From positions 11,887 through 75,886 of the IMG/VR virus record IMGVR_UViG_3300005534_000011: a stretch of DNA of 64,000 nucleotides; one strand, written 5' to 3'. Shown here one piece after another: positions 13,014 to 31,248 of this stretch. Every line of letters begins with the position of its first letter. Within the stretch, counting starts at the first letter, position 1. This stretch comes from a virus. The notes beneath the pieces are model-generated. The model worked only from the letters and a program-made list of their open reading frames with translations, made no database searches and was not told the DNA's origin. A program made the translations under genes and the position numbers.

Positions 13014-13201
13014 AAGGATGTAGGTGTTTGAAAAGCCTTGAGAAATCAGGGCTTTTTGGTATAGGGTAGAATCGCTGGAAAAATAAATTGATTCTACCCC
13101 TTGACATCACAATAGAATCAGATAATCTTACCACAACAAAGCAACATTCATTCAACCACCCAAACGGGTTAAGGCTTTACTAATCGATCAAGGGGAATAC
13201 C

Positions 13202-13666
13202 ATGCGCCAAGTATCTAAAGCAGCTCAGGCAGAAACCATTTCTACTAACGTACTCGAAACCGCATCGACCGCCCTGTCACTGGCCGAAGATGCGTTGATC
13301 AAAGCAAAGGAAGCTTTGGCCGCTGCCGGTGGTTCTGGTGGGTCCAAGTCGGGAAGGGGATCGAAAGGTAAAGGTGGGGATCAAACCCCTGATAACGCTT
13401 CCAAGGGCTCGGCGGGTCGTAACCCTTCACCGGAACAGCTTGAGATTCGTTCCGCAATTATCGAAGCTTTGCAATCCGGTGAAATCAAGTTCTTTACCAT
13501 CGCCGAAGTGACCGAAGCCATGAAAGCTGACCGTATCCAAACCCGGAACGCGGTCAACTATCTGGAAGCTCAGAACATGGTTGTTCGGTACGGTGAAAAA
13601 CTCCCAGAAGGTCGCGGCCAGCGGGAATTGATCTACAAGGCCGGAGTAGTTCCAGTCCCGGCCTAA
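13202..13666 (+). CDS. winged helix-turn-helix DNA-binding protein
   Basis: C-terminal IRSAIIEAL...TIAEVTEAM...TRNAVNYLEAQNMV...GRGQRELIY wHTH pattern; own promoter (13101) and terminator (13683). Confidence 0.65.
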   Translation: MRQVSKAAQAETISTNVLETASTALSLAEDALIKAKEALAAAGGSGGSKSGRGSKGKGGDQTPDNASKGSAGRNPSPEQLEIRSAIIEALQSGEIKFFTIAEVTEAMKADRIQTRNAVNYLEAQNMVVRYGEKLPEGRGQRELIYKAGVVPVPA

Positions 13667-13682
13667 TGGGTTGGTAATGTAT

Positions 13683-13712
13683 AAAGCCCCTTAACCGGGG
13701 CTTTTTGTTGTC
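13683..13712 (+). terminator. intrinsic terminator
   Basis: AAAGCCCCTTAACCGGGGCTTTTTGTTGTCT; near-identical copy at ~31148. Confidence 0.85.
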
Positions 13713-13921
13713 TAGGGTTCTAGGGATTTGATATAAACCCATATAGCAACATTCCCCAGTAATCCACACCAATCATCAGATAGACTCCTAAACCCTCTCA
13801 AATCCCCTTAGAATCAACCAAAACCATATAGCAACATTCTAACCCTAAACCCATTCCCACACTTGACATTCGGAATTGATGGTTTAAGGTATAGGAACAT
13901 TCCAGAACATATAGGCATCAC

Positions 13922-14149
13922 ATGAAACTCTTCTATGTAGCAATCTTTCTGGTGGTAGCAAGTCTCCCTGTAGGCTTTATCGGTATCTATGCAGCTTGGG
14001 ACAGAACACCACCTCAATACCGCTTATTGCAGTTGGATCAAATCATGCATACCGGTGGAATGGTCTATCTCGCCATGGTCGCCGGATCGGTTCTGCTGTT
14101 TCTGGTCTGGTTGTCCCTTCCACTGAATCGCAGGGATTATCGGGTTTGA
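13922..14149 (+). CDS. small membrane protein (2 TM)
   Basis: Two hydrophobic segments; TTGACA promoter at 13863. Confidence 0.6.
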   Translation: MKLFYVAIFLVVASLPVGFIGIYAAWDRTPPQYRLLQLDQIMHTGGMVYLAMVAGSVLLFLVWLSLPLNRRDYRV

Positions 14150-14635
14150 TTTGATTGGGTATTCAATAGGTGAAATATCCCTCAATTTGATGGAATACCA
14201 GTGAATTCTGCTGAATGCTTTCGAGAGTGTTAGGGAATTTGTGTGGTATTTGATGGAATTACGGGATTTGATGGAATTTTTGTTGCATCAAATTTAGCGG
14301 ACGAACTTGGACTAACGAGAAAGTCTATCATTTAAGTGTAACGTTTTCATTCCACTGGAACGGTTTCGTTACACTTCCCAGAATTCCCAAACCATTCAAT
14401 ATCTCTCAATCATCCCAATGATTCTATAAGGGTTTGGTTCTATTATCAATCCCCTTAATAGTATCTGCTAAAATATCAATTTGATTGATTTGATTATATT
14501 TTGATCAATCCCAAAACCCCCGCTAATTTATTTCAAAATCCCCCTTGATTAAAGCTTGATTCTGTTTCGATTCCTGCTATTCTATACCTATTACCACCTA
14601 TCAACTATTACCTACCAGCTTCTAAGGGGTTTCAC

Positions 14636-14956
14636 ATGGCTAGCATTATGGAACAATTCAAGGCTTGGGTTAACATTCAAGCCACCGATGATCCTGATCG
14701 AATCATTGACCATCATTCATGGGTTTCCTGTGCTATTGGGGAGTTTGCTACTCACTTAGGTTATAATGGGTTTCCTGCCCATCAAGTGAGTGATGCTTTC
14801 AAGCGTCATTATGGAATTGATGCATGGAAATTATTGGGGAATGCTGGTTCTGTTTATAGTGGCTTCGGTTCCGGTTGGAAAATGGTTGTTGATATGACCA
14901 CCTATAAGGATTTGGCGGATTGGTTGAATTCTTTGAATCCCTTGGAGCCATTCTAA
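14636..14956 (+). CDS. CA(V/I)G(Q/E)F-family hypothetical protein
   Basis: IIDHHSWVSCAIGEFA...TTYKDLA. Confidence 0.75.
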   Translation: MASIMEQFKAWVNIQATDDPDRIIDHHSWVSCAIGEFATHLGYNGFPAHQVSDAFKRHYGIDAWKLLGNAGSVYSGFGSGWKMVVDMTTYKDLADWLNSLNPLEPF

Positions 14957-15636
14957 TGCATTGGGTTGGTTCGCTGATTATTATAGGTCTTTTGATGGCC
15001 TGTACCGGAATGATGGTAATTGGCTATGGTGATATGCCTAAGCATTCATTTTGGTATGTGATTGTTTTGGATTCATCTGTTGTCTTGATAGGGGTTTGTG
15101 TTCTATCATTGATTGGGCTGTTGGGTTTCTTGAAGGTATAGGGGAATTTTATGAAAGCATTATATCATGTAACCGCAAAATCTAAGGGGTTTGTAGTTCA
15201 TACCTCTTTTCAAGTGGCTGATAGTGTGGAATCCGCTATTGAAATTATAAAGGAGTTTTATGCGGTTGTTCCGAAGGATTCCCAATGGTCTGCATATAAA
15301 AGGCGGGAATTATGATATTGGTTGAATCCATTGTAATTGATGGTAAATTGATTGGGGCGATAATGATGGATTATAACGGTTATTTCTATCGTCCTAATCA
15401 ATTAGGGGTTTTGGGTTGGTTGAAATATATGTTTTCCGATATCTATTACTTCGGATCTATCTCTGAGCTTAAAGAGTCCTTATTGAATTGATGTAAATGC
15501 TAATATTTTGATGCTTTGGGGCGATTTATACCAGAATATTAGCATTTACTATTTTGTTTTGATTCTTGCTTGAAATGGCTTGACTTTTGTTTTGATTCTG
15601 GTAAGCTTCTCCCATTCCTTAATTGAGTGATACAAA

Positions 15637-15975
15637 ATGACTATCCAATCCGCCGATTTGAAATTGATCACCGAATTCCGCGACTTCTGTGCATCTAAAG
15701 GTAATGAGCCTATCCAGCATCGGGATGGCTGGGGCCATGCGAACTGGAATACCTGTGCTGTTGGACAATTCGCTAAGTTCAAAGATATTCCCAATATCGA
15801 TGGTGACCGTATGGCCGGGATGTTGAAATCTGCGTTTAACATCATTCAAAATACCCCATATGGTTTCATGATTGATTTGGGTAGTGGTGACTCGGCAGAA
15901 GAACAATATCCGACCTATGATAAGGTTGCGGATGCTGTAACTACCATCATCAATAAATTTCAGGGGGTTGTATGA
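15637..15975 (+). CDS. CA(V/I)G(Q/E)F-family hypothetical protein
   Basis: LITEFRDFC...PIQH...WNTCAVGQFA...YPTYDKVA. Confidence 0.8.
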   Translation: MTIQSADLKLITEFRDFCASKGNEPIQHRDGWGHANWNTCAVGQFAKFKDIPNIDGDRMAGMLKSAFNIIQNTPYGFMIDLGSGDSAEEQYPTYDKVADAVTTIINKFQGVV

Positions 15976-16304
15976 TCCTTTCAGAAACCACTCGTGATGA
16001 GGCGTTGACCCTGATCACTGAGTTCCGGGACTTCTGTTTGACCCGTGGTGATGCTCCTATTCAACATCTGAATAGACTGGGTTCCGGTTGGGATACCTGC
16101 GCAGTGGCCGAGTTTGCGGCAACCAAACAAATCCCCGCCCATTCTCCGGGTAATGTAATGGCTTGTATGTTGCGACATGCTTTTCGCACTATCGATAATA
16201 CTTCGGTGTTTATGATTGAATTGGGCTTGGTTTATAGTGCTCAATCCAAGTATCCAACCTTCGACAAGTTGGCCGCAGATTTGACCACTATTCTTAATCA
16301 ATAA
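15972..16304 (+). CDS. CA(V/I)G(Q/E)F-family hypothetical protein
   Basis: LITEFRDFCLTRG...PIQH...WDTCAVAEFA...YPTFDKLA. Confidence 0.8.
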   Translation: MILSETTRDEALTLITEFRDFCLTRGDAPIQHLNRLGSGWDTCAVAEFAATKQIPAHSPGNVMACMLRHAFRTIDNTSVFMIELGLVYSAQSKYPTFDKLAADLTTILNQ

Positions 16305-16318
16305 GGTATATCATTAAC

Positions 16319-16690
16319 ATGAAACCACATAACGCTCTGAAATTGATTGAATCTTTCAGGGACTATTGCTTGACCCGTGGTAAAGATCAAATTGTCCACA
16401 AAGTACCGGGTGGTTGGGCAAGTTGGAATACCTGCGCTGTTGGTCAATTCGCCGATTACAAGAAGATCAAAAAGGGCGATGCCGGGCGTGGTAATAACAT
16501 GTACGAAAAATTGCTTACAGCTTATAAAGCAGTGGGTATTTCGTATGGTATCGGGGTGCTGTTGTATAAATTGGGTGATACACGAACCGCCGAAAAACAT
16601 TATCCAACCTTCGACAAGCTCGCCAAAGCTTTGACCAAGGATATCAAAACCGGTATGGGTAACATCAAAGCCAATAAGGTGAAGGCATGA
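16319..16690 (+). CDS. CA(V/I)G(Q/E)F-family hypothetical protein
   Basis: LIESFRDYCLTRG...WNTCAVGQFA...YPTFDKLA. Confidence 0.8.
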   Translation: MKPHNALKLIESFRDYCLTRGKDQIVHKVPGGWASWNTCAVGQFADYKKIKKGDAGRGNNMYEKLLTAYKAVGISYGIGVLLYKLGDTRTAEKHYPTFDKLAKALTKDIKTGMGNIKANKVKA

Positions 16691-16812
16691 AAAGCAATCA
16701 AAAAGGTTTTACCGCTGTTGAATTGTGGATTTGCATCTGGGGTGTTATCTGTGTTGGTCTGATGGTTGGTGCTATCGGTATCGGCCTGCATTTCATCATG
16801 AAATTCTGGTAA
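16687..16812 (+). CDS. 41-aa mini-prepilin (class III signal peptide plus TM helix)
   Basis: Not in ORF track; translates MKSNQKGFTAVELWICIWGVICVGLMVGAIGIGLHFIMKFW; ATGA-coupled to the upstream gene. Confidence 0.7.
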   Translation: MKSNQKGFTAVELWICIWGVICVGLMVGAIGIGLHFIMKFW

Positions 16813-16879
16813 TTTCAAAAGTAATTTGACATTTGATGCAAAGGTGCTATCCTCTAACCATCACTAAGGGGATTGCATC

Positions 16880-17257
16880 ATGTTAGATATTCATGTTGGT
16901 TCTGATCTGTTCAAAGCTGGTGTTACCGAAGATGGTCAAGACTTCATAGGCGAACGCTGGTTTGTTCAAGCCGAAGCGGTCAACGGTCAACGTTGGGTGC
17001 ATATAGCTCGCTTCGATTCAACCAAGGCGGTTGATGGTGAGGATTGTGACGGGATGGTGTTCTTCCCGGACAACCGTGTAGAGGCTCTGGGGCGTGCTGA
17101 ATCCTTGGCGGCAAATGTTCGATTGTTCCTGAATGCTGGTGGTAAGTTGACCCCAGAGTTTTGGATTGAGGTCGATCCTAGATATGGTTCGATTGCATAT
17201 CAAACCCTTGACAATCAAGGGTATTTCAAGGATCTAGAACGCAAAGCTGAATTTTGA
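16880..17257 (+). CDS. hypothetical cassette protein
   Basis: Preceded by cassette promoter and RBS, followed by terminator. Confidence 0.75.
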   Translation: MLDIHVGSDLFKAGVTEDGQDFIGERWFVQAEAVNGQRWVHIARFDSTKAVDGEDCDGMVFFPDNRVEALGRAESLAANVRLFLNAGGKLTPEFWIEVDPRYGSIAYQTLDNQGYFKDLERKAEF

Positions 17258-17971
17258 TGAAAAGCCTCGGGAAACCGGGGCTTTTTATTTGGGGTTGGGT
17301 ATTGCATCAAATCCATAGGGTGTTATACTGACCCTACACCAACCGAGGGGCAGACCATGAACCGTAAAGAAGCATTCCTAAAGATCAAATCCGTAGCGGC
17401 GGATGATGGGTTTACCAAACTGGATGTTCTGCCGATGTTCAAAGGTGTAGCACCTTCGGTTGTTAATGGCTATTTGAAAGCCGCGTATGAACTTGGGTTC
17501 ATTACCCTGAATGCAGGCAACCCGCTGTGCATGTACCCGACCATCAATCTGCGCAACCTGAAATAATTAGGAGGTAACCATGGAAATTTTGGTTCATAAC
17601 AGTATCAATTTCGTTAATGGTTTGGCGATGAATATCACCAACCCAGATACATTCTCGGTCCCAAGCCTTGACGAAAAGCTGGCGGTAAAACCGGGTGGTC
17701 ATATCAAGATTGGGGTTAAGGTGAACTCCCATAACATCAATTGCGAACGGTTTTGGGGTCGGGTGGTTCAAAACGATACCGATAACCATATCATCACAGT
17801 GATGATTGACAATGATTTGATTTGTACCGACATTCATGGGCTGCGTTATGATGATTGTATTCAAGTGCCCTATGATGTCGTGTTAGATGTAATTTGATCA
17901 AATAGGGGTTTGCATTTGATGTAAACCCTTGCTATACTGCTATCACACCAACCAAATCAAGGAATACCAAA

Positions 17972-18235
17972 ATGGCTATCGTCAAAGCTGTTGCAAACAC
18001 CCAAGACCTGAACAAAAACTGTGTTCTAATCTCAAAGGTTGTTAATCAGGTGGACGGCAACACGGTGCTGGTTTATATCCTGTTCATCAATAACAAGCCG
18101 GTCAACCACACTGCAAGCTTTGACCGCGCACTGGGTTGGTATGACAAGAATGTGACCGACGTTGTTAACCCGGTTGAAGTGGTTGAAATCGGCCATTATG
18201 CGTGTGGTACTATCCACATCAAAGAAACCCGATAA
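17972..18235 (+). CDS. hypothetical cassette protein
   Basis: Follows hairpin promoter and CACCAACCAAATCAAGGAATACCAAAATG leader. Confidence 0.75.
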   Translation: MAIVKAVANTQDLNKNCVLISKVVNQVDGNTVLVYILFINNKPVNHTASFDRALGWYDKNVTDVVNPVEVVEIGHYACGTIHIKETR

Positions 18236-18313
18236 ATTTGATCAAATAGGGGTTGCATTTGATGTAACCCCTGCTATACTAACCCCATACCAACCAAATC
18301 AAGGAATACCAAA

Positions 18314-18631
18314 ATGTCTATCATCAAAGCAATCGAAATCAAAATCGTCAAAGCTGGCACTGAACATTTGGTCCACCATCAAGCGGCGATAACCCTTGAA
18401 TTCGCCCCTCAGTTTGTAGGCGATATCATCAAGTCCATTTGTGGTTGCGAGCTGGACGATGACGACCACAACGATTTGAACGACTTGCATGTTTATGGCG
18501 TAATGGCGAGCCGGTTCGGTAAAGATTGGGAATTCTATGTAACTGCCAAGGTTACCTACCCCGATGATATCAATTTGGATTCCAACGTGGATTCGGATAT
18601 GTTCGCCCGCAAATATAAGAACACTTTGTAA
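18314..18631 (+). CDS. hypothetical acidic cassette protein
   Basis: Same leader as 17972, and similar first codons (MSIIKA vs MAIVKA). Confidence 0.75.
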   Translation: MSIIKAIEIKIVKAGTEHLVHHQAAITLEFAPQFVGDIIKSICGCELDDDDHNDLNDLHVYGVMASRFGKDWEFYVTAKVTYPDDINLDSNVDSDMFARKYKNTL

Positions 18632-18900
18632 TGACCAAGCGAAAGAGGCTCTATAAGCTGTTGCGGAAGCTCTGGAAGTTTCTTTGATGGTATCCAACCC
18701 GGTCTAATCAGCCGGGTTTTATTTTGCCTAGACATCTTGACAACCATACAAAAAATATGAGAAAATGAATTGACGACCTATATTTGTGGTTGGCATGAAA
18801 ATTTCCGTGAACTATTTGATGCAAATAGCTTTAAACCGCTTGTATTGCATCAAATTAGGAGTATACTGACCCTACACCAACCGAAACAGGGAATTCAAAC

Positions 18901-19341
18901 ATGAACGCTTTCACCCAAGCCCACACGATGACTAAAGAAATCATTCAAGCTGGTGATAACTACGCGGCCACGTTTGCCCTGTGCCTGAAACACATCAAGG
19001 GGTCTATCATGACAGAAGCTCAGAAGCTGGCAGCACAATTCATAGCCGATGCTAAAGCCCGCATAGTCGAGTTGGAAGCGTTCAAATCGACTAACCCAAG
19101 CGGTTATGTCGTAATCACCGGGGAAGATGTTAAAATGTCCCTGCAATTTGATGCAGGTTCGGTAAAGGTTTGCAGGATCGAATCCGCTACCCGATACAGC
19201 GAACGCCGCATAGCAGACGCTATCGCTTCTCAAGTACGGAATGGTGCCAATTACAAGGCCAAATCCATTTGGTTGATTGATCAGATTGTAAATGATATCG
19301 AATGTCAACAAGACCTGATCCGTCAATGTGAATCGATTTAA
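18901..19341 (+). CDS. hypothetical cassette protein
   Basis: Cassette promoter and RBS upstream. Confidence 0.7.
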   Translation: MNAFTQAHTMTKEIIQAGDNYAATFALCLKHIKGSIMTEAQKLAAQFIADAKARIVELEAFKSTNPSGYVVITGEDVKMSLQFDAGSVKVCRIESATRYSERRIADAIASQVRNGANYKAKSIWLIDQIVNDIECQQDLIRQCESI

Positions 19342-20662
19342 ATCGATTTAAAATAATCGAAATAGGGGTTGCAATTTGATGTAACCCCTAGTAAACTGCA
19401 ATTACACCAATCGAAATGGAAGTTGGCAAAATGATCATCATCAAAGACGAGTTCACTAGCGGCGCTCAGGTAAGCATGGAAATGGATAAGGACGCGGGCG
19501 AGCTGTTCGTTTTCCATTGCCCTGCCGGTCAAGGCTGCAAGGTCAATAAATGGCCTTTGGATAGCTATCATATGCCCATTGCGATGGCGTATTACACGGA
19601 ATGCTGCACAATTGAACAGCCAGAACCAGACGACATCGATTCAACTTTTGCATGCATGTGTGACGAATAACCAGCGTCAATATAGGGTTTGCATTTGATG
19701 TAAACCCTTGCTAGAATCTAATCACACCAACCAAATCAAGGATTATCGAAATGGCTACCGAAACCCACCTGACCCGCGAAGTGTTCACCCTCAATAAGCA
19801 GTCTGTTGGCGTCAAAGTTGCTTATAATGGTTGGTGTGCCACCTATAACGGTGACGACTGTTCGTTGTCTGATATCCCGGCTCAGTACCACGAAACCATC
19901 CGTAAGGTGGTGACCGTAATTTGCCTCGAAAATAACTGGGTTGATATGGGGGCGGTGTAATGAGAGAACAATTAATCAAATTGATACAAGCGTGGCAAAC
20001 TTTGGGGTTTATTAATAGTACCCTAATGCGACCTGTCGATTATGATAGGCTGGTGTCGTCCAGACGTGCTATAGAAGTGGCTGTTAAAGCGCTCGCCGGG
20101 GTTAGCAGTTCGGCCAGCATCATTGAAGCTATGCAGGTCGTGGGTATTACCCATGATGACCTTGACCATCAATAAGGGATTTGATCATGGCAATCGGCGA
20201 ACGCAAAAGCATCAAAGGGGCACCATCACTCAAGGTTTTTGAATCGGTGATGATTAACCCACACGGTCGGGCAATCCGGTTGGACATCTGGAAGACCGAC
20301 CAGACCGATGTTAATGATAGTATTTTCGTTTTCTGTGCCAATGATTTTATCCAGACCTACGACACCGACAAGACCCTTTTGCTTGTCGAGCTGGCCGCGT
20401 ACATGGTGGATAACCTGTAATTTGATGCAAAAGGGGTTTGCATTTGATGCAACCCCTGTTATACTGGTATCACACAAGGGAGATACCACCATGTTAGACA
20501 ACAAGTTTTCAAAGGGCGACAAAGTTCAAGCCGATGGCCCTTTCTGGCTTACCGTCACCGAAGTGCGTGCTAATGGCTGGTATAGCTGCATTTTCGGTGC
20601 CATCGGCGGTTATGCTGGTTCTTTCCGTGAAACCCAACTTTCAAAATATACTGGAGCATAAC

Positions 20663-20992
20663 ATGGGCCTTCTCATTAGCGTTTACCGTTCGGCTGGCTG
20701 TGACTGCACTAACAACGGTGTGTCGTCTCGTTATGATCAACTGACCCTAGTTAATGTGGGTGGTCCTTTCGAGCCATCCAATACCGCCCCGGCTGCGTGG
20801 TTGGTCAAACATCGTACAATGCCGGGTGTTGTGTATATCGTGTGTGAAGACCCGGCAACTAGCAAACGTGCCCATATGGCTGGTGGGAACTTCGGCGGTA
20901 CGAGTGATTCCCGGTTTTCATCTGAAATGGCAAAACTTACCGGCTGTGCAAACTGGCACGGTGCTGCGAAGATTCACGACCGATACGAATAA
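20663..20992 (+). CDS. hypothetical protein flanked by 27-bp direct repeats
   Basis: GGAG RBS inside the repeat, ATG at 20663; DCTNNGVSS...MAGGNF..TSDSRF...IHDRYE. Confidence 0.75.
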   Translation: MGLLISVYRSAGCDCTNNGVSSRYDQLTLVNVGGPFEPSNTAPAAWLVKHRTMPGVVYIVCEDPATSKRAHMAGGNFGGTSDSRFSSEMAKLTGCANWHGAAKIHDRYE

Positions 20993-21910
20993 CCTACCAC
21001 AACTTTCAAAATATACTGGAGCATAAACCATGTGGTACGAAATCAATGTTTCACTAAAAGGTAAGCACTTTTTCGCAACCGCCAAACGTAGCATTACCGA
21101 CCGGGAGCAACTGAAAAAAGCGTATACCGTGTTTGCGGAAAAGTTCCCGGCAAGTGAAGGCTATGAACTGACTGTTACCAACTATGCGGTATCGGGTTAT
21201 ACGGTTGACCCAATGACAGGCGAGCCGCCACGGCAGACCATCGGCGATATGGAACTCGACAAGGATTGATATGAAATGCCCAAACTGTAAACAAGAATTG
21301 ATGTTAAATTCACCGGTAGAATACAACGTGGAAACCTACCGAAAACCCGCTGTAGGTGTTGCGTTATGTTGTGGGGTTGGTATCAGGCTTGAGGTTGTTA
21401 CTACCTTTAAAGCTACGGTATACACCGGTAAGGCCATCTTTGACGACTGGGGTTATGAAATCAAACCAGCGTAATACAAATAAACCCGGCGAAAGTCGGG
21501 TTTATTTTTGCCTATTACTTGCATTTGATGCAATACCTGCTATAATTTGATCATAACCCAGATAAGGAATATGATCATGAAAGCACTACTCAACCGGGAC
21601 CGTTCAAACGTTGATGATATCGGTTTGATTATGGTATCTGTTCTGGCGGTTGTCAGTATCCTATGGACCATCAGCTAATTTTGTTTCAGGGTTGCAATCT
21701 GGTTTGGATGTGCTATTCTATAGTTACTGGGGCGGCTCAGAGGCAATCACCGAAGTACCCTTGAATTTGAGTTGGCACGATTCTTGTCATAGCAATTACA
21801 ATGCCAGAATTGAAACAAATTATTTTCAATTAATTGCATCAAATAGCTTGACCACGCTTCTAGATGCTGTAGACTGACCATATCGAAACAAAACATCAGG
21901 AGTAACAAAC

Positions 21911-22324
21911 ATGAAAGTAGTAGCCGATTATCCAGCTTATCAAATCATCGATATGGAACAGGATGTACTAGACTGGCCGGAAGATACCAAAATCAATATG
22001 GCGATTGCCTATGAATCCCGGCAGTATGGCACCATGTACCGGATGTATTATATTTCTGGTGTGGCTGCATATGTTCGTAAGTCCAATAACGAAAGCCCGG
22101 AAGAGTATCACAGTGACCCGGAAGCCGCTGTAACTCGTGCAAAATCGATGGGTCAGGCCCTGTATTGGGTAAGTGAGTGCTCTACCAGTATCACCGCGTG
22201 GAACCGTCCTAAAGAAACCCATATTTTGGGTAAGGTCTGGCAGAAAATCCGGTTTGATGGTAAGTTGTTCGAACTGGTACACAATCGCGCCGAATTCTAT
22301 AGCCTGAAAGAAATTTCGGAATAG
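21911..22324 (+). CDS. hypothetical cassette protein
   Basis: AGGAG RBS; promoter at 21848. Confidence 0.75.
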   Translation: MKVVADYPAYQIIDMEQDVLDWPEDTKINMAIAYESRQYGTMYRMYYISGVAAYVRKSNNESPEEYHSDPEAAVTRAKSMGQALYWVSECSTSITAWNRPKETHILGKVWQKIRFDGKLFELVHNRAEFYSLKEISE

Positions 22325-22398
22325 CATCAAATAGGGGTTGCATCAATTGCAGCCCCTGCTATACTAACCCCACACCAACCAAATCAGGATTACATAAC

Positions 22399-22833
22399 AT
22401 GCAAATTTCTAAAGACATAACCGCAAACGTTCTGGCCGGTGTAATAACCTCCGATGTTAAACGTGTAGAGGCTGCCCGTGTATTGGGTATGTTCCGGGTT
22501 GTTCTGGTCGAGGATGAAACTTACAGTTTTGAAGACCTGTGCGGCGATATGTATAACCCGGAAGCTAACCCGGATGTTGATGTAACGGTGTTGGCTCGCC
22601 AGAAGCGTGCATATCGTGCCAGAGTGAACCGCGACGGTGTGTATGGTTCATTGGCTCAGGTACGGAATACACCAACTGGGTTATGGGTCACGGTTGAATC
22701 AATCTGGGGTTTTGTGGGTGAAGATTTTATCGGTTCCGGTTATGAATCGGACTTTATCGAAAATGCAAGTGAGTGGTTGTTTACAAACCTCGATTTGCCG
22801 AAGCTTCAAGCGGCGTTCAAAGATTTGATGTAA
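22399..22833 (+). CDS. hypothetical cassette protein
   Basis: Hairpin promoter 22333-22365 and leader. Confidence 0.75.
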   Translation: MQISKDITANVLAGVITSDVKRVEAARVLGMFRVVLVEDETYSFEDLCGDMYNPEANPDVDVTVLARQKRAYRARVNRDGVYGSLAQVRNTPTGLWVTVESIWGFVGEDFIGSGYESDFIENASEWLFTNLDLPKLQAAFKDLM

Positions 22834-25433
22834 TTTGATCAAATAGGGGTTGTATATGATGCAACCCCTTGCTATAATTACCTCACACAAACCGGAGTAC
22901 ATAACATGCACAACATCCAAGCGGTCAACGACAAACTAACCGAAGGTAAAGCCACTGACCTACTGTTTACCGGGTTTCGTCAGGCCATGCGTGATGGCAT
23001 GAACTATGCCCATTTCAATAGTGGGTGTGATGCGTTCGGGTTGGATGTTGTCGAAGTCCCAAGGGTCAACCAACTTAACGGCCAAAAATATTGGTCCCTT
23101 CGGTTGTATTGCGATTGTAAATTGGTTGCAACCGCCTACGCGGATGAACATGATTTGTAAGGGCTTGACAATCCAGTTACACCTGATAGGCTGAATCACT
23201 TTTTACCTTGAGGCGTCACCATGCAAACCACGACCGTATCTCAAACCGCCTATAACCCCTCTCAGGGCGTTGTAAGCAGCCAACCCATGCAACCGGCCTA
23301 CCGTGCCGAGTACAACCCACTGTCGGCCCGCTGGATGGTTCTGAGCGAGTTTGATGTATGTGTGCAGGCTGGTTTGAGCAAAGTTGCGGCTATTGCATTA
23401 GCCGAAAGCCTCTAAAGATTTGAAAAGAGCCCCGAAAGGGGCTTTTTGTTGTCTAAAAATAATTTGATGTAATCATTGACATAACAATTCTGTTCTGTAT
23501 AATTCAATCCATACCAACCAATCGGATTAATCAAAATGCTTACTCAAACCAGCCTGAAACATCCAGTAATGCAAGACCGCATCCTGTCCGGGTTGATCGA
23601 AGCCCAGACCAAGGCCGAAAACGCCGGTCATGGTCGCGCCTACGTGGCTAATTCGAAAGGTAACAACATCATGCGGGTGGACGTGTTCAAACCGGGCCAA
23701 GTCGATTGGCTGCCGAAGGGTGGTGTTATTGTGTACGGTGAAAGCTCCCGGACCATTACCAACATGGTGGAATCCGCGTTGGGTTCTAAGCTTTCCGACT
23801 TGATTTGATCATAAGCCCCTGATTCTAGGGGCTTTTTATTGTCAAAAAATATTTGCATCAAATGCTTGCAATGGTCTGAAATGGGTGTAGACTACCTATA
23901 TCGAAACCAAACAGAGGATTCAATCATGGCCCGTCGCGAAATACAACTGACTTGGAAAGGCGAAGATGGTGTAGAATTCACCTCTAACACCGCTATCAAT
24001 GGAACAGAAGACGAAATCATTGATTATTACATGAATAATCAATTTAACGTTGGTAAGGGTCCGAACGATTATATGGCGGTTTGTGTTGCACTGGATTTTA
24101 CCGATGTTAAACCGGTTGATGTATTCGGAATTAATAACTCGTTTGGGGGTCTGTGATGCTCTATACATTGCTTGGTTTGTACCTGATGACCGGTGCTACT
24201 AGCCCAACTGATACTGTCGAGAAAATCGAGGGCATGCATTTGGAACAATCGGTTTGTGTTCAACGTGCCAAAATTCTGGCGGATGAATTGGGTGGGGCTC
24301 GCTGCCGACCAGAAGAGGAACTAGACGAAAACACACCGTATCGGAATACCCTCACAAAGATTCAATTGCCATCGGGTCGGGTTATTGAGTTGTGGTACAC
24401 CCGTGGGGTTTGGTCTTATCCTGCTGATTTGGTTGATGAGGATCGGGAGCTTATCGAGCAATACACCCAATTCGAATACAGCCGCTGAAAATAAAATCGG
24501 AATAGGGGTTGTATTGCATCAAATTGAGATTATACTAACCCCACACCAACCAAATCGAGTAAAGATCATGAAAACCGCGACCAAGACCTACGCCATAGTT
24601 GACGTTAAAAAATGGTGGTTCTCGCACTTCACCATCAATGGCAATGGGGTTTATAGTTTCACCATCCAAACCGAAACCGGTGAAATCATCAGCGGCAAGA
24701 CAGCTCCCGGCCTGAATCAACATCTGTCGATGAGTCCTGCTAAGCTGGCAGACGTGACCATCAGCACAACCCCGACCGGTCGTATCAAGATGACCAACGC
24801 CAACCGGGCCTAAAGAATTTGATGTAAGGGGGTTGCTAATTGATGCAACCCTGTTATAATTCCAGCACACCAACCGAAATAGGGATTCAAAAATGGCTAT
24901 CGCACACGACATAACCTGCAAGAACTCGACCAATCCTAAAGGCTTTCACGTTAGCTTTAATGGTCGCCGGGCTGGGGCGTTGGGTGTTACCTATGCCGTG
25001 CAAATCAACGTTTACGCGGATACCGAAGAAATGGCACACACCGCCATCTATCAGGAATATGAACACCTGATGTTCGTCAAAATCACTCCTATCAATGGTG
25101 ATTGATATGACCACTAATCGGGTGTTCAAGAAGGGTGACACCGTAGGTTTAAAGGCATCGGTTCGTAAAGGTTGGAAGTGTCCAGAAGGCCGAGAGGACA
25201 ACCAAACCGCCGATATCAGAGCGACCTACAGCGATAAAGGCGAATGCTGGTTAGACCATGATTTACACGGCTGCAAGTATTGGAATCAAGAGGATTTGAT
25301 TTTGATTCAAGCGGTTGAAGACAAGACGCCCCAATAGGGGCTTTTTGTTGTTCAAAAATATTTGCATCAAATGCTTGCAATAGGTTGGAAACCGGTTATA
25401 ATGAACCACACCAACCAAATCAAGGATTCAAAA

Positions 25434-25841
25434 ATGAAAACCCAAGCCGAACTGATTCAAGAAGCTGTTACCAACGCCGCCGAAGGTTGTGCAATATTCA
25501 ATGCAAAAATGGTCGAACTGTTTCCGGTGTATATTGCACTGGCACGCCCTCGTAAGTTGCTGGGTGATAACGTAGAAATCGAATTCGCCAACGTTTCCAA
25601 CCGTTCCGAATGCTCTAGCGGGATTCTGATGAATGCTAGTGGTCATATGCGGTTTATGATGCAACTTAACGAAGGTGTTAATACCGTCGCAAATTCGTTT
25701 GATATTGACTTATTGACGTGGCATCATCAAGCACGTAGTGTTTTGAAGTTCCGTCGAATCAAAGGCAAGACCCCAGCCGAAGCCCTGCAAAAGTTGGCGG
25801 TCTGGTTTGAAAAGAATCAGGACATTATCAAGGCAATCTAA
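25434..25841 (+). CDS. hypothetical cassette protein
   Basis: Start reassigned to the ATG after the AAGGA RBS of the cassette leader. Confidence 0.7.
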   Translation: MKTQAELIQEAVTNAAEGCAIFNAKMVELFPVYIALARPRKLLGDNVEIEFANVSNRSECSSGILMNASGHMRFMMQLNEGVNTVANSFDIDLLTWHHQARSVLKFRRIKGKTPAEALQKLAVWFEKNQDIIKAI

Positions 25842-25846
25842 TTGGG

Positions 25847-26200
25847 GTGGCTATGGAAAAGGATTTGTTAGCACCGTGTGACAAGTGCCCCAGCATCACC
25901 GATAAGGAAGTGGGTTATATCGCTGGGGCTTCTGTAATGCTGTTTAAGACGTTCAACGGATCAAGCCGATATGTTTATCAGGTGCAAGGCCGTAACGTCG
26001 CTGTGATGCATATAGCGGCTGATATGAGCAAAGCTGCTAGGGTTGTGTCGGTGTATGCATTACCAGATTATAAAAATGCCGGGTTGTTCCGAAAGTTGTA
26101 TTACAGTGCCATGAAAGATCATGGCCGGGTCAAGTTAGGTGATGAATTGTCTAACTGTACTCAAGTGCTCGACTTAATCCACGAAATCAAAAACATCTAA
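25847..26200 (+). CDS. putative GNAT-like acetyltransferase
   Basis: VVSVYALPDYKNAGLFRKLY resembles GNAT motif A (V.P.YR..G). Confidence 0.45.
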   Translation: MAMEKDLLAPCDKCPSITDKEVGYIAGASVMLFKTFNGSSRYVYQVQGRNVAVMHIAADMSKAARVVSVYALPDYKNAGLFRKLYYSAMKDHGRVKLGDELSNCTQVLDLIHEIKNI

Positions 26201-26204
26201 GGGC

Positions 26205-26429
26205 TTGATCATGTGTCGCAAATTCATCAAAAATTCTGATATGCGGGAATTGGTCAACTTTGCCGAGGGGATCGGCTATAGTGTGGAACTAACCAAGGGT
26301 AAGCACCTAAAGTTTACCCTTCCCGGTGTGTCGCCGGTCTTCACAAGTTCAACCCCCAGTGATTACAGAAGCTGGGCTAACTGTCGAGCACGCTTGAAGC
26401 GGTTGGTGTCTGGGCTGATGGCGGCCTAA
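26205..26429 (+). CDS. HicA-like dsRBD-fold protein
   Basis: GYSVELTKGKHLKF...VFTSSTPSDYRSWAN..ARLKR. Confidence 0.6.
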   Translation: MIMCRKFIKNSDMRELVNFAEGIGYSVELTKGKHLKFTLPGVSPVFTSSTPSDYRSWANCRARLKRLVSGLMAA

Positions 26430-28480
26430 AAATAATTTGATGCAATCCCTTGACGGGGTGGTTAGGTTGCATCATACTGACTACACAATCAAAGGAGCTA
26501 CACAAATGAAACTTACACCATTGCAAGCAAGTAAGAAAATCCGCGAACATCTGAATCAAGGTAACGGCATATACATTGATGGTCGTTACTATGATGTCAG
26601 GGTACATGCTGGAATGTTGCAGGTTTCCGACTTTCGAAGCTGGTTTGTTGTGCAACCCGGTGCCGAGTTCCGTAACAGCCACGGTCGTACACTCTTCACC
26701 TATGAACCGATAGAAGGGGCTTGACATGGCGAACCAAATCACCGCTATGCAAACTCAAGTTGATGAGCTTACAACCCGCATCAACTTAGCTGATGACAGC
26801 TTGCAATCATTCCGGGCGTATCTGTCAAGTCCGAAATTCACCGGGGACAGTGAGTTACAAGGTTACATATCAATTCAAGATGTTGAACACCATCTAGCCG
26901 CTATCTGGCGGGAGTTACACGGTTTGAATTGATCCAAGCCCCTGATTCTAGGGGCTTTTTATTGTCCAAAAATATTTGTATCAAATGCTTGCATTACATC
27001 AAATAGCTGTTAGAATGAACTCACACCAACCGAAACAGGAATTCGAAAATGGTCATGAAACTGGAACAAATAACCGAAGCTCTGAAAAACAAACATTTGG
27101 AAACTGTCAAGAAGGAACTATGTCGGTATGGTGATATCTTGGATGTGCAGGACTGGGAAGACCACCACGGGGCACATCGTTGTTATACCATTCAATACCA
27201 AAATGCAAGTTTCGATATATCTATGTTGAACGGTGCAACCATCAATATCAAACAGGGTTGAACATATGAAATTTCAAGACACCTTTACAGACCGGCTGAC
27301 CGGACAAAAGTTTACGGTTGAAATTGAAATCAACCAAGGCGAAGTGTCGAAATTGTTAGCCGCTAGGGCATGGGGCAGCAAGTCCGGGAAAAGTCAAGCC
27401 CTGAATGGTGATATCAAATGCAAAATTATTAAACGTGAATAGCATCAAATAGGGGTTGCATTTGATGCAACCCCTGCTATACTAACCCCATACCAACCAA
27501 ATCGAGTAAACATCATGGCACGTCAAACCCGCTACACCGTACAGGCACTACGCGCAGATATCAAAGAATTGAACGAGACTTTGAAGGCAACCGGGTACTA
27601 TCTGGGGGTTGAATGCCGCAACGGTTACACCGGGTTGGACGAATACCGGGTTAGTACAGACCCGGCTAAGCGTGATACTTGCGTTCGCAATATCGAATGT
27701 GGGTCGCCCCGCGATTGTTGGGAAGCGGCTCGCCTGTATACCCCACGCGATAACAGCTAAAATAGTTTGATAAAGGGTTTACATTTGATGTAAACCCTTG
27801 CTAGAATCTAATCACACCAACCGCTTTAGGAGCTTTCAAAATGAAAAATCTGATTCTTGGTATCGCACTGGTAACCGCATCCTTCGCCGCTGTTGCGGAT
27901 GGTCAACAAAAATGCGCAGAATTGGTTCACACCAGAACTCTGGCCCCAATCTCCGAATTCTCCGACGCAACCGCCGCCACTCCTTATTACACCGTGGCTC
28001 GCCAAAAAGGCGGTTCGACCACTACCTATCAATGTGATGGGATGGGTAACTATCGGCAGTTGATGGATTACGGGTGGTCCATCTGGCGCACCGGTAACGA
28101 ATGGAACGCTGTTCACTGGATGCAGGGTTGATAAAAAGGGGTTGCAATTTGATGTAACCCCTAGTAAACTGCAATCACACCAACCGATAGAGGGTCCGAA
28201 CATGTCTTACATCGTCGCCAAAGCAGCAAAGGCCCTCCTAGACAAAGCTCTGGATGAGGCGTCGGCGGAACTTCGACAATTCGATCAGTTCAAGGGTGCA
28301 ATGGGCATGACCCCGGACCATATCAAAGCTACCCCGGAGTTTCGGAAAGCAAAACATGCATTTGATGTAGCTTTTCAGACTTCCCGGAATTTTAACGGGG
28401 ACTTTAACAAACGGTACAAAAAAGAAATTGCCGCCGACCGTCGCGCACGCTACAATCAATCCATTTAAGGAGTTACAACC

Positions 28481-28798
28481 ATGTCCGAATTGATCAAAGA
28501 ACTATCCGCCGCTCTGGACTTCGCCACCGAAGTTTTGAATACGGCACCCCCGCAAATCTGTCAGGTCAAACTGACCGCCGAACCGGGTAAGGTTTGGATT
28601 CGTCTGGTGTATACCGAATTGAACCGGGACGGAACTGTAAGCGACCGTAGCCGCTGCTGGGGGTTCATGGATGCAGACGGCAACCTCTGGAAGTCGGCAG
28701 GCTGGAAGGCCCCAGCCAAAAACAAACCACGCGGAACACTGGCGGATTTGCACGACCCCAAGAAGGTCGAAAGCTGGCGGTATGGTGGTGTGCAATAA
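28481..28798 (+). CDS. phage hypothetical protein (KxAxWKAPAK motif)
   Basis: GFMDADGNLWKSAGWKAPAKNKPRG motif; AAGGAG RBS. Confidence 0.7.
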   Translation: MSELIKELSAALDFATEVLNTAPPQICQVKLTAEPGKVWIRLVYTELNRDGTVSDRSRCWGFMDADGNLWKSAGWKAPAKNKPRGTLADLHDPKKVESWRYGGVQ

Positions 28799-28938
28799 CC
28801 GAAATTGATGAAAAGCCCCTAGAATCAGGGGCTTTTTGTTGTCCAAAAATATTTGCATCAAATGCTTGACCGGCCCTCAAATTGATGTAAACTAACCATA
28901 TCGAAAGGCAAAACGCCTTTTCCAAGGGAGTCAAGACC

Positions 28939-29760
28939 ATGGCAGTAGTAGATAGCAAAGACCTGTACACCTTCATATCGACCGGCGACAAAGTGGCTAT
29001 GTACACCCTGCGGGTTATGTGTCTGTGCCGGGTTCAGGTGGGTGATTCCGCATTCAATGAAATGCGTGACTATTACATTCAAAACCTGTCGAACGACAAG
29101 GCAACCGCCGAAGCGAAAGCGGCTGAAATGTCCGGCCTGATGAATCTGGAATTTAAAGGGAACGCGGATTTTGAATTGAATGAAATCCGTCGAATCCGTG
29201 ACGAAATGGCATCCGAAAAACGTGAAGCGGCAGAACGGGCGCATCAAGAGCGTATCGCCGAATGGGCGGCAGAACGCGCAGAACAGATTCAAGCTGGTGT
29301 GTTCATCATGGGTAAACATACCGGTAAAACCGCCGCCGAAGTCGCTGTAGAGGATTTGGGGTATCTGTTCTGGCTGGCCGGTGAAGTGGAAGCAAACGGC
29401 AAACTAGGGATTTGTGCGAAAATCGCCGCTAATTACATCCAGTTGACCGGGGTTGAACTCCCCGGCTACATCGGTGAAGTTGATCAACCAATTGAAGTAA
29501 CCGCAACCCTGAAGCGTGTGTTTTGGACCCAATCCCAATACCCTACATTGATGCACATTGCAACTACCGTACAGGGTAACGAGATTGTGTTTTTCAGCGT
29601 TGCTCAGGGCTTCAAGGAAATTGAAATCGGCCAGACCTTCACCATCACCGGCACCGTTAAAGAACAGAGAGAAGGCTGGGGCGGTACTAAACAGACTGTT
29701 ATCGGCAAACCTAAGCTCCCTAAGCCAGCCAAAGCGGCAAAGGTTAAGAAGGTGGTTTGA
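28939..29760 (+). CDS. putative nucleic-acid-binding protein (GKHxG...YLxW motif plus C-terminal OB-fold-like domain)
   Basis: FIMGKHTGKT...LGYLFW; YIGEVDQ...FTITGTVKE...KQTVI. Confidence 0.55.
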   Translation: MAVVDSKDLYTFISTGDKVAMYTLRVMCLCRVQVGDSAFNEMRDYYIQNLSNDKATAEAKAAEMSGLMNLEFKGNADFELNEIRRIRDEMASEKREAAERAHQERIAEWAAERAEQIQAGVFIMGKHTGKTAAEVAVEDLGYLFWLAGEVEANGKLGICAKIAANYIQLTGVELPGYIGEVDQPIEVTATLKRVFWTQSQYPTLMHIATTVQGNEIVFFSVAQGFKEIEIGQTFTITGTVKEQREGWGGTKQTVIGKPKLPKPAKAAKVKKVV

Positions 29761-29789
29761 CAGGACATCAAAGCGGGTCTAAGGTGGTG

Positions 29790-29880
29790 TTAAGCGTACA
29801 CGGATGTATGCGGTTGTTGGGCGTCCACTCCCAACCGCCAGCCCCTTGCCCGCAAGTCTAAAAGCTTCGCGGGCATTTTT
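29790..29880 (+). ncRNA. candidate ~90-nt small RNA with Csr/Rsm-type hairpin
   Basis: Promoter TTGACA-17-TAAGGT at 29757-29785; three stem-loops, the last a terminator ending in TTTTT; no RBS-supported ORF. Confidence 0.5.
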
Positions 29881-30515
29881 ATGTCAATTTTTAGAGTATC
29901 GAAATGAAATATCATCAAAATTTGATGTTGCATTGCATCAAAACCTATGGCAAAATGATAGTAATCGGAGCATATACCCCATTTCTGGCGGTCATGATCT
30001 GGTCTGAAATCAAAAACATTTTGGGTTGATTTTAAAAAGGAGTTTGATAGAATAGGAAGGGTAAGACATGAAAGCCAAGAATTTGATACATGAATTGATT
30101 CCAGCGGAAAAACGGCTGGCTAAGATTGATGAAATCGACCGGGAGTTAGAGCGGCGGTTAGCAGCTCAGGAAATCACCCTTGTCGAGTATTTCGAAACCA
30201 AACAACCCTTGACAGTCAAGCGGTTTAAAGAGTTTCGGTTAGTTGCACGGGCTCGCGGTTGGAACCTGAGCGAAAACCTTGATGTACCCGAGGTGTCAGA
30301 AGCTCTAGAAGAACCCGAGGTGTTAGAGGTTCTGGAACCAGCCAAGCCGGTGCCCATTCGTCAAAGGCTGTTAGGCTTCTTGATTGTATTACTGATGATG
30401 TGTGCTGTTTCGTGGGTTTGGCGGTGATACATCAAACCCAAAAATGATGCAAAAGTGCTTTACAACCCAACTGGGTTTGATATAATCAACCTACTTACTT
30501 AAAAGGATGTACATC

Positions 30516-31031
30516 ATGACCAAATCGACCGCTACCCAAGCCGCCAAACCAGCTAAAGCCAAAACCACTGCTGTGTCGGCACCCAATCTAACAACCGTGG
30601 GTCCGGTTGTGGACAAGACCCCGCCGAAGCGTGTACGCAAGCCAGCCGCACCCAAGGCGGTCCCAACCACACCGGTTCAAGTTGCCCCAGTTGTTCCTGT
30701 AACGCCTGTAGCACCTGTGATCGTTATCCCGGTCAAAACCGGTGCAGGCCGTCCAATCTCGGCAGAAGCCGCGAAAGTTCGTCGTCGGGTGGTGGGTGTG
30801 TGGTTCAAACTGGTCGCGGCTGGTGAAACCGAGGTGACGGTTAAGGCAACCGCCAAAATTGTCAAGCTCAAAAAGGTCACTGTATCCAACACTATCCGTT
30901 GGGCTGAATCGGTTGGACTCATTACCCGAATCGGTTACAAGTTGAAAGCCGGTCCCGGTCGTAAAGAAGTGTTCTATACCGTCAACCCGGCCAAGCTGAC
31001 CGAAATGGTAGCGATTCCAGAGGCGGCGTGA
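30516..31031 (+). CDS. winged helix-turn-helix DNA-binding protein with Pro/Ala/Lys-rich N-terminus
   Basis: TVKATAKIVKLKKVTVSNTIRWAESVGLITR...GPGRKEVFY; resembles 13202. Confidence 0.65.
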   Translation: MTKSTATQAAKPAKAKTTAVSAPNLTTVGPVVDKTPPKRVRKPAAPKAVPTTPVQVAPVVPVTPVAPVIVIPVKTGAGRPISAEAAKVRRRVVGVWFKLVAAGETEVTVKATAKIVKLKKVTVSNTIRWAESVGLITRIGYKLKAGPGRKEVFYTVNPAKLTEMVAIPEAA

Positions 31032-31248
31032 TGTTCTGTCGCATTTGTGGGGCTCGCCTGTACGTGAAGGGGGTTTGCACCATCTTTTGCCCTAACCGTA
31101 AGTGTGGGGTTGGACCACCCTTTACATAAGACACCTGAAACCAAATCAAAGCCCCTTAACCGGGGTTTTTTGTTGTCTGTAGAAAAGTGGTTGACCTAGT
31201 GACAGATTCGTGTATAGTGCCGCCCATTCTGTTTTGAATAGGTGACCC

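Follow-up and report, generated by a model that had tools for sequence, protein, structure and literature searches.

A 10-bp box, TTTGATGYAA, recurs throughout an island of small genes located between 12.5 and 31 kb of the 64-kb stretch of viral DNA analysed here (the window; bases 11887-75886 of a 75.9-kb IMG/VR viral contig, CheckV completeness 44%). Judged by its setting, the box forms the core common to some 30 promoter/stem-loop cassettes of the PeSL type, which head small early genes. We favour a combined explanation, to which we assign a probability of roughly 0.7. According to this explanation the island would be a PeSL-type early island in which the box has two roles, one as part of an RNA hairpin and one as a site on DNA. 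Two features appear to be new beside the known PeSL class: a 10-mer in fixed register and either orientation, conserved across the clade and also forming an array away from promoters, and a clade-restricted pair of AT-hook-plus-winged-helix paralogues (P0001 and P0002) encoded at the island borders.

The genes 3' of the island are of T4 type and include gp34 (long tail fibre), RNase H, thymidylate synthase (td) and NrdA/NrdB (nrdAB). The RNase H shares 69% identity with those of two Pseudomonas phages, Astolliot from P. syringae and Milchi from P. poae; the KVP40-like vibriophages come next with 46%. By these genes the window belongs to a contig of a T4-like phage, and its closest isolates are Astolliot and Milchi. 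No near-identical DNA was present in the phage collection searched, and one sequencing run alone, of a soil metagenome, contained the island; this metagenome is probably its source. For comparison we used the 76-kb fragment containing the window (G000) and two near-complete metagenomic relatives, G001 (183 kb) and G002 (168 kb). The clade of T4-like Pseudomonas phages formed by these genomes is undescribed. A literature search found no description of promoters or winged-helix proteins of this kind for Astolliot or Milchi. The Milchi paper, which deals with taxonomy, anti-defence hits and DNA modification, contains no promoter analysis and gives no modification motif for this phage, and the phage-specific motifs of the pf16 paper differ from TTTGATGYAA. 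A literature search for TTTGATGYAA as a recognised binding site turned up nothing but primer sequences unrelated to the subject.

Expected numbers of boxes were obtained from dinucleotide-preserving shuffles, and the two orientations of TTTGATGYAA are referred to as F and R. The window contains 32 exact matches (0.59 expected), 27 of them at 12561-29942 and five elsewhere. If one mismatch was allowed, the number rose to 110 (17.6 expected), with about 62 between 12417 and 31918. A preliminary description of this DNA had spoken of about 40 copies, a figure that falls between the exact and the one-mismatch counts. Association with promoters was assessed using 93 promoters from the islands of G000, G001 and G002, which were chosen by gene start and -10 hexamer only, independently of the box. 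A box (at most one mismatch, within -60 to -1) was present in 82 of the 93, at about -29 to -20 or -47 to -38, thus overlapping the core promoter in an operator-like manner. The boxes had been described as adjoining or overlapping the -35 or the spacer, and for promoters of the + strand this proved correct: they lie just 5' of the -35 or within the -35/spacer region. Distances to the -10 fell into discrete registers. Gaps of 6-8 nucleotides (nt) were found with 35 F and 14 R boxes, gaps of 12-13 nt with 12 R and no F boxes, and gaps of 25-29 nt with 20 F and 29 R boxes. At the 12-13 nt gap the internal TTGCAT of the R box is the -35 itself.

All island genes are on the + strand and are small ORFans; a Pfam scan of 44 island proteins yielded a single weak match, to an ExoX-like C-terminal motif. 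Nearly all intergenic gaps of the island contain a conserved cassette, for which three layouts can be distinguished. In layout (a) a hairpin lies over the promoter (aatAGGGGTTGYAT-ttg-ATGYAACCCCTGC-TATACT); the box forms the loop and the 3' arm, the 5' arm supplies the -35 (TTGYAT, 16-nt spacing), and the -10 is usually accompanied by TGn. In layout (b) an intrinsic terminator (AAGCCCC-loop-GGGGCTTTTT) precedes aaaataa and the box; a gap of 3-4 nt separates the box from TTGAC(A) or TTGCA(A), and one of 16-17 nt separates the latter from TAnAnT. Layout (c) comprises hairpin-free promoters of the form TTGTA-TTGCATCAAA-N7-TATACT. The three layouts share an A-rich leader (ACACCAACCrAAAyAGG or ATATCGAAAC) ending in a ribosome-binding site and ATG. 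The leader ACACCAACCrAAAyMAGGA (e.g. 18281-18313 and 27484-27514) is common to differing promoter layouts in all three genomes. Hfq/Crc recognise A-rich motifs, and the conserved leader could be a translation enhancer or the target of an RNA-binding protein such as Hfq/Crc.

PeSLs combine a strong sigma-70-like promoter, preceded by an A/T-rich tract, with a stem-loop and are found in the hyperplastic regions of T4-like phages (Arbiol 2010, PMC2839356; Comeau 2014, PMC4122927). They lie preferentially beside ORFans, possess demonstrated promoter and terminator activity, recombine with one another and are thought to drive gene shuffling in these regions; the stem-loops of RB49 and phi1 were shown experimentally to end, attenuate or protect the upstream RNA (PMC2839356; PMC4122927). 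The cassettes of the island display sigma-70-like -35 and -10 hexamers with spacing in the 16-18 nt range (TTGACA-16-TATAAT, TTGACA-16-TAGAAT, TTGYAT-16-TATACT), stable stem-loops at the promoter (terminator hairpins 5' of it, covarying hairpins over the -35/spacer, -17 to -19 kcal/mol), an A/T tract 5' of the -35 (aaaataa/aaaatat), and a Shine-Dalgarno sequence with start codon. As with the PeSLs of RB49/phi1, PST/T4 and nt-1/KVP40, the elements are composites of about 80-100 bp, are clustered beside ORFans in a hyperplastic region, and the gene content of close relatives differs where stretches the size of a cassette were inserted, deleted or replaced. G000, G001 and G002 have largely collinear islands, in which about half of the cassettes are present in one or two genomes only, and island genes show mosaic presence and absence across these genomes and Astolliot. 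The positioned boxes of G001 are almost confined to 47-71 kb.

The present cassettes differ from published PeSLs in sharing a specific 10-mer, which also occurs without a hairpin, in two or three fixed registers, in either orientation and in a non-promoter array. In addition, the -35 lies within the 5' arm of the hairpin, and none of the published PeSL consensus sequences is related to those found here; an Rfam search across 12000-32500 gave no match. Promoter and terminator activity and recombination into mini-circles were demonstrated for PeSLs; the promoters and terminators of the present cassettes are predicted ones.

Pairing in the hairpin was analysed in an alignment of 43 cassettes from G000, G001, G002 and Astolliot. 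Standard pairs occupied 98.1% of the cells. Four pairs were changed on both sides, amounting to 25 compensatory cells, and of the single-sided changes 46 gave G:U and nine gave a mismatch. The observed covariation or pairing was matched by none of 500 shuffles, and pairing dropped to 39-51% when the 3' partner was slid. Because the wobble pairs are G:U on the + strand only, the sense RNA folds more stably than the antisense RNA (cassette 18241: -17 kcal/mol, z -4.3, vs -11.5 kcal/mol, z -1.9). The hairpin is a selected structure of the sense strand. Since it is located 5' of the start site of its own cassette, it could be transcribed only from the preceding one.

The box is separable from this hairpin. 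In about a third of the positioned boxes it constitutes the loop and 3' arm of a 10-13 bp hairpin having the -35 in its 5' arm; among 95 positioned exact boxes, 33 were in a hairpin of at least 7 bp and 62 were outside (a few of the 11 F-distal positioned boxes are R-distal sites read in reverse). Six of the 10 positions of the 10-mer are self-complementary, and the full TTGCAT-N3-ATGCAA dyad (15-23 bp) is confined to hairpin cassettes. In Astolliot the two elements reside in different cassettes. Its hairpin cassettes have the stem GGGGTTGTAT paired to (A/G)TACAACCCC (rTACAACCCC), loops TTCG, TACG, TCTG or CAA, and no box, whereas its hairpin-free cassettes carry TTGCATCAAA 7 nt before TATACT in the form of layout (c). 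Where Astolliot pairs perfectly (TACAA), G001 and G002 retain TGCAA facing TTGTA with a U:G wobble. Several Astolliot cassettes (L009:1417-9025) also have TCACATCAAA right after the -10 (TATACTGA-TCACATCAAA), which places a box-like ACATCAAA at the extreme 5' end of the predicted transcripts.

Boxes are also found away from cassettes. Four of them form an array about 500 bp 3' of P0001, the last three being 17-18 bp apart. The array is syntenic and footprint-conserved in G001 and G002, and no recognisable promoter was found at 14185-14293. At the orthologous non-cassette sites (this array and the P0002 promoter) the boxes stay conserved while the flanks diverge. Because boxes occur without hairpins, keep fixed registers, are conserved as footprints and form a non-promoter array, we infer that the 10-mer is a separately selected site, read as double-stranded DNA.

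The array is part of a non-coding, A/T-rich segment of about 500 bp (14150-14635), located in the part of the window with the lowest G+C content. The segment also contains two copies of a 19-nt unit, GTAACGTTTTCnwTaCAC (14337-14376), followed by a run of TTGATTGATTTGATTATATTTTGATCAAT. The units are direct repeats in G001 and G002 and fold into a hairpin in G000 (-16.3 kcal/mol, z -4.5). This layout is conserved in the three phages and is reminiscent of iterons or of a regulatory hub similar to an origin.

On the combined explanation, the island would represent the early hyperplastic region of a T4-like phage, with nearly all small genes or gene pairs headed by a composite cassette: sometimes a terminator, then an A/T-rich tract, a sigma-70-type promoter (-35 TTGYAT or TTGAC; -10 TATACT/TAGAAT, often with TGn), an A-rich leader, a ribosome-binding site and ATG. 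In the hairpin role, the box would belong to a covarying hairpin reached only by read-through from the upstream cassette, and by analogy with the RB49/phi1 stem-loops this hairpin may end, attenuate or protect the upstream RNA. In the DNA-site role, the stand-alone 10-mer would be read by a protein acting on all island promoters together. P0001 and P0002 are candidate readers; a host factor or RNA polymerase itself could also serve. Four points weigh against this explanation. The hairpins have no canonical U tract, so that the case for termination is made by analogy with RB49. Part of the box enrichment needs no extra reader, because the R form includes TTGCAT, the preferred -35 hexamer of the phage, and the F form in hairpins is its complement. 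A scan with a generic sigma-70 consensus was weakly enriched over shuffles (49 vs 35.7, standard deviation 5.8), and gene conversion between cassettes could inflate the apparent conservation of the box.

The preliminary description had interpreted the box as the operator of a phage repressor. In its present form this reading, which we regard as a reasonable hypothesis but less likely than not, holds that one or both of P0001 and P0002 recognise the box by the winged helix, a GRP-like arm being placed in the adjacent A/T minor groove. Binding at -29 to -20 would repress, binding at about -47 to -38 would activate or organise, and the whole island would be under a phage-encoded switch. To our knowledge, an early switch or shut-off working through an operator has no precedent in T4-like phages. 

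The structural evidence bearing on the operator reading comes from models. AlphaFold predicted a disordered N-terminus in P0002 and a single long helix in P0001, each followed by a C-terminal winged helix (pLDDT about 90 and 87, respectively). The best Foldseek matches were a ROK repressor on its operator, ArsR, MepR/MarR, and the centromere binders pNOB8 AspA and TubR (E about 1e-3), and matches in the ESM Atlas were the same kinds of DNA-binding winged-helix protein. An AT-hook-like arm directly precedes helix 1 (P0002 family, G-R-P-I-S; P0001 family, G-R-x-P-S). Profile-profile comparison established that the two families are homologous over the arm and the winged helix (97.9% probability, E 3e-13), although pairwise BLASTP of P0001 against P0002 gave no match. 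The similarity of the two genes noticed earlier was thus genuine, as were the shared wing motif G-x-G-x-(R/K)-E-x-x-Y (EGRGQRELIY in P0001, AGPGRKEVFY in P0002) and the low-complexity N-termini; the recognition helices differ (QTRNAVNY in P0001 vs TVSNTIRW in P0002). The predicted topology, H1-b1-H2-H3-b2-wing-b3, is that of MarR/ArsR/ROK winged helices. Unlike these, P0001 and P0002 have no Pfam match and no recognisable MarR/ArsR-type dimerisation module, possess the long disordered or coiled N-terminus and the arm, and have homologues in this clade only. PHROGs returned only a weak family of unknown function, and a sequence search of solved structures only a marginal winged-helix match (2d1h, E 0.04). 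Among 5.8 billion proteins the two families have homologues in 25 and 15 clusters, all unnamed and Pfam-free. Among 50,697 phage records a P0002-like gene was found in Astolliot and Milchi only and a P0001-like gene in none, and scanning viral and metagenome contigs with profiles yielded nothing further but a fragment of 1 kb.

The genomic positions of the two genes also bear on the operator reading. They bracket the box-dense island in all three genomes (in G001 at 48.0 and 68.5 kb, with boxes mainly at 50-70 kb; in G002 at 102.5 and 82.0 kb, with boxes mainly at 80-104 kb). As had been described, the two genes have a terminator in common: the window contains exactly two copies of GCCCCTTAACCGGGG (13686 and 31151), with a 32-codon open reading frame (ORF) intervening after P0002, and both homologues are followed by the same terminator in two related genomes. 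The promoter of P0001 is free of boxes and the conserved four-box array lies 3' of this gene. None of the other island proteins (44 scanned) belongs to a Pfam DNA-binding family; as the sole predicted DNA-binding proteins of the island, P0001 and P0002 are the best candidate readers. Box numbers track the number of paralogues. There are 35, 94 and 74 exact boxes in G000, G001 and G002 with two paralogues each, 16 and 12 in Astolliot and Milchi with one each, and two in T4, which has none (reversed-pattern control, three). This correlation is suggestive; it comprises five related phages plus T4 and is confounded by phylogeny.

Several observations are at odds with the operator reading. The co-occurrence of genes and island comes from three closely related, phylogenetically confounded lineages. 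The 10-mer is an imperfect palindrome, the long dyad belonging to the hairpin class alone. The Pro/Ala/Lys-rich tail of P0002 is reminiscent of non-specific proteins of the nucleoid or linker-histone type, further DNA binders may have gone unrecognised among the island ORFans, and AsiA already provides a means of early shut-off. Of the original repressor-operator proposal, the enrichment of the box, its embedding in promoters, its conservation without hairpin or promoter and the homologous winged-helix genes bracketing the island in three genomes have stood. Much of the signal, on the other hand, is accounted for by PeSL cassettes, with about a third of the positioned boxes in hairpins and with the preferred -35 hexamer TTGCAT contained in the R form. 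In its widest form, the proposal would have two AT-hook-plus-winged-helix paralogues controlling the whole early island through the box in 30-90 cassettes per genome, with the array as nucleation or titration site, in virulent T4-like Pseudomonas phages that are AsiA-positive and MotA-negative. We consider this wide form doubtful. It is reminiscent of phi29 p4 and SPO1 TF1, small phage DNA-binding proteins with many sites at early promoters that could repress or switch these jointly, but the protein folds are unrelated and binding is hypothetical in the present case.

Alternatively, the box may be an intrinsic element of promoter strength read by the host transcription machinery, with no part for a phage regulator: through region 4 of sigma-70 or the C-terminal domain of the alpha subunit on additional TTGCAT-like or A/T elements, or through a host architectural factor such as IHF. 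We think this rather unlikely. Early promoters must fire before any phage protein exists, and the register of the box is fixed relative to the -10. The TTGCAT contained in the R form, which at one register is the -35, would be read in this way, and the distal box follows the A/T-rich aaaataa tract, where UP elements are located. In T4, too, the conservation of early promoters extends far past the two hexamers. The IHF core consensus is WATCAANNNNTTR, and distal R sites (ATCAA-N4-TTG) resemble it. However, the resemblance fails for the F orientation and for proximal sites. Contacts of RNA polymerase are directional, yet both orientations of the box occupy the same registers, and the conserved array at 14185-14293 is devoid of a recognisable promoter. 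As box readers, IHF, FNR/Anr, Fis and sigma-54 were set aside; only distal R sites are similar to the IHF core, and the others misfit.

The box could also be a functionless passenger of palindromic PeSL cassettes that undergo duplication, gene conversion and template switching; its two orientations would then arise by a flip of the central TTG/CAA in TTGCAT-NNN-ATGCAA. PeSLs are documented recombination substrates with crossovers mapped within the loop (PMC2839356). The islands are mosaic, near-identity extends over entire cassettes of 80-100 bp, leaders and terminators included, and hairpins with either TTG or CAA loops exist. This explanation is nevertheless improbable: stand-alone F boxes 5' of the -35 have no left palindrome arm, the 10-mer is kept at orthologous non-cassette sites with varying flanks, and G001 and G002, but not Astolliot, keep TGCAA against perfect pairing. 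Furthermore, the box is shared with Astolliot and Milchi in spite of the 69% identity of RNase H.

The least probable of the functional alternatives, in our view very unlikely, is that the box is an analogue of the T4 MotA box, that a winged-helix paralogue replaces MotA after AsiA has remodelled sigma-70, and that the box promoters are both early and middle. AsiA (PF09010) is encoded in G001 (C1:9122-9334), G002 (C1:138777-138971) and Astolliot (38299-38517), and lies outside the 76-kb fragment with the window. A Pfam search of G001, G002 and Astolliot detected neither MotA domain (PF09158, PF09114), the T4 positive control being found with an E value of 7e-71. By these searches the clade is AsiA-positive and, at Pfam sensitivity, MotA-negative. 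AsiA offers, by analogy with T4, a way to shut off -35-dependent promoters. Many box promoters have a TGn-extended -10 and a weak -35 hexamer; in T4, promoters of this type would tolerate AsiA better than -35-dependent ones. Like T4 middle promoters, those of the island often have an extended -10 and contain a phage-specific box of about 10 bp that replaces or overlaps the -35. Versions of PeSLs with a Mot box (PmSLs) were reported in nt-1 (PMC4122927). The box of MotA-type middle promoters is of the TGCTT type, centred at -30 and 11-13 nt from the -10. The present box is unrelated to TGCTT in sequence and differs in spacing (6-8 vs about 12 nt) and in its freedom of orientation, and most cassettes retain a usable TTG -35. 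The winged helix of the candidate readers is unrelated to the MotA double-wing domain, and there was no sign of a sigma-70 interaction. A function of the box as a modification or nick motif is weakly disfavoured, as the Milchi paper gives no modification motif.

On the combined explanation, the island exhibits PeSLs in an undescribed clade of Pseudomonas phages, with strong covariation support for the RNA hairpin and with an extra 10-mer. If a phage protein reads the 10-mer, it would provide a second route of early-gene timing in T4-like phages, besides AsiA/MotA. If nothing reads it, the cassette would be a clean example of promoter, terminator and recombination signals packed in one 80-bp module. 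Two cultured relatives, Astolliot and Milchi, make direct tests of the system feasible. The positions of the cassettes, the array and the two genes are listed in Table 1.

Table 1. Cassettes, boxes and winged-helix genes of the island (window coordinates; cassette and promoter assignments are predictions)
Feature	Position	Strand	Details
Leftmost cassette	12561-12635	+	R box 12561-12570, TTGACA, 16 nt, TAGAAT 12596-12601, leader, ATG 12633
P0001 promoter	about 13101-13129	+	TTGACA-17-TAATCT, box-free
P0001, 154 amino acids	13202-13666	+	N-terminal helix, Gly/Ser/Lys linker, SKGSAGRxPS arm, winged helix
P0001 terminator	13683-13713	+	intrinsic, AAAGCCCCTTAACCGGGGCTTTTTGTTGTCT
Box array	14185-14293		ATTTGATGGAAT at 14185, 14248, 14266; inverted TTGCATCAAAT at 14283
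Hairpin cassette	17899-17974	+	TAGGGGTTTGCAT-ttg-ATGTAAACCCTTG, box 17915-17924, TGC-TATACT 17933-17938, leader, ATG 17972
Hairpin cassette	18241-18316	+	box 18258-18267, -10 18275-18280
Hairpin-free cassette, two boxes	18815-18903	+	F 18815-18824, R 18845-18854 (7 nt before TATACT 18862)
Hairpin cassette	19358-19433	+	box 19375-19384, -10 TAAACT 19392
Hairpin cassette	19678-19753	+	box 19694-19703, -10 TAGAAT 19712
Two-F-box cassette	20421-20493	+	20421 distal, 20443 in hairpin, TGT-TATACT 20460
Distal R box cassette	21834-21913	+	box 21834-21843, TTGACC, TAGACT 21870
Hairpin cassette, R-form box inside hairpin	22322-22401	+	GGGGTTGCA-tcaat-TGCAGCCCC, -10 22360
Distal F box and hairpin	22824-22908	+	box 22824-22833, GGGGTTGTAT-atg-ATGCAACCCC, -10 TATAAT 22873
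Classic PeSL layout	23424-23538	+	terminator GCCCCGAAAGGGGCTTTTT, aaaaataa, F box 23463-23472, TTGACA-16-TATAAT (12/12 consensus)
Classic PeSL layout	23813-23928	+	terminator 23813-23834, aaaaatat, R box 23853-23862, TTGCAA, TAGACT 23888
Proximal R box cassette	24514-24570	+	box 24514-24523, 7 nt before TATACT 24531
Distal F box and hairpin	24818-24895	+	F box 24818, box-like ATTGATGCAA 24839 in hairpin, -10 24855
Terminator cassette	25328-25436	+	terminator 25328-25341, R box 25362-25371, TTGCAA-16-TATAAT, ATG 25434
Terminator cassette, two R boxes	26936-27051	+	terminator 26936-26957, boxes 26976 (distal) and 26994 (proximal), TAGAAT 27011
Hairpin cassette, perfect 23-bp palindrome	27440-27517	+	GGGGTTGCAT-ttg-ATGCAACCCC, box 27461-27470, R-type box-like site 27440
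Hairpin cassette, compensatory changes	27768-27843	+	GGGTTTACAT-ttg-ATGTAAACCC, box 27784-27793
Hairpin cassette	28131-28204	+	box 28148-28157, -10 TAAACT 28165
Terminator cassette	28815-28941	+	terminator, R box 28853-28862, TTGACC-16-TAAACT; heads the 273-amino-acid gene 28939-29760
Rightmost exact box	29933-29942	-	+ strand reading TTGCATCAAA; conserved promoter TTGCAT-17-CAAAAT of gene 30068-30427, just before P0002
P0002 promoter	30443-30486	+	box-like TGATGCAA, TTTACA, 16 nt, TGA-TATAAT; conserved in G001/G002
P0002, 171 amino acids from ATG 30516	30516-31031	+	disordered Pro/Ala/Lys/Val-rich N-terminus, GAGRPIS arm, winged helix
P0002 terminator	31148-31180	+	AAAGCCCCTTAACCGGGGTTTTTTGTTGTCT, stem and loop as after P0001

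Some neighbouring genes deserve mention. Directly after the P0001 terminator, an ORF of 75 amino acids (13922-14149) with its own TTGACA promoter encodes a product that by eye seems hydrophobic and similar to a membrane protein; it occupies the same position in G001 and G002, with 64% identity in both. The product of 28939-29760, the largest island gene (phrog_3628), gave the weak ExoX-like match noted above and is the best conserved island protein (68-77% identity in G001, G002 and Astolliot). The leader of this gene holds GGCAAAACGCC, which recurs in Astolliot leaders. The 32-codon ORF that follows P0002 (31031-31129) is Cys-rich (MFCRICGARLYVKGVCTIFCPNRKCGVGPPFT), its ATG overlaps the P0002 stop codon (GTGATG), and it may encode a zinc-ribbon mini-protein; in G001 and G002 its place is taken by a different ORF of about 75 amino acids. 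To the right of the island, 31249-31902 encodes a protein of 217 amino acids, 78-81% identical to its G001 and G002 counterparts, with a weak PHROG match (E 0.0025) to the T7 gp0.7-type protein kinase/host-transcription inhibitor family. In Milchi, a gene two ORFs 3' of the P0002-like gene carries this annotation and might be a homologue of 31249-31902.

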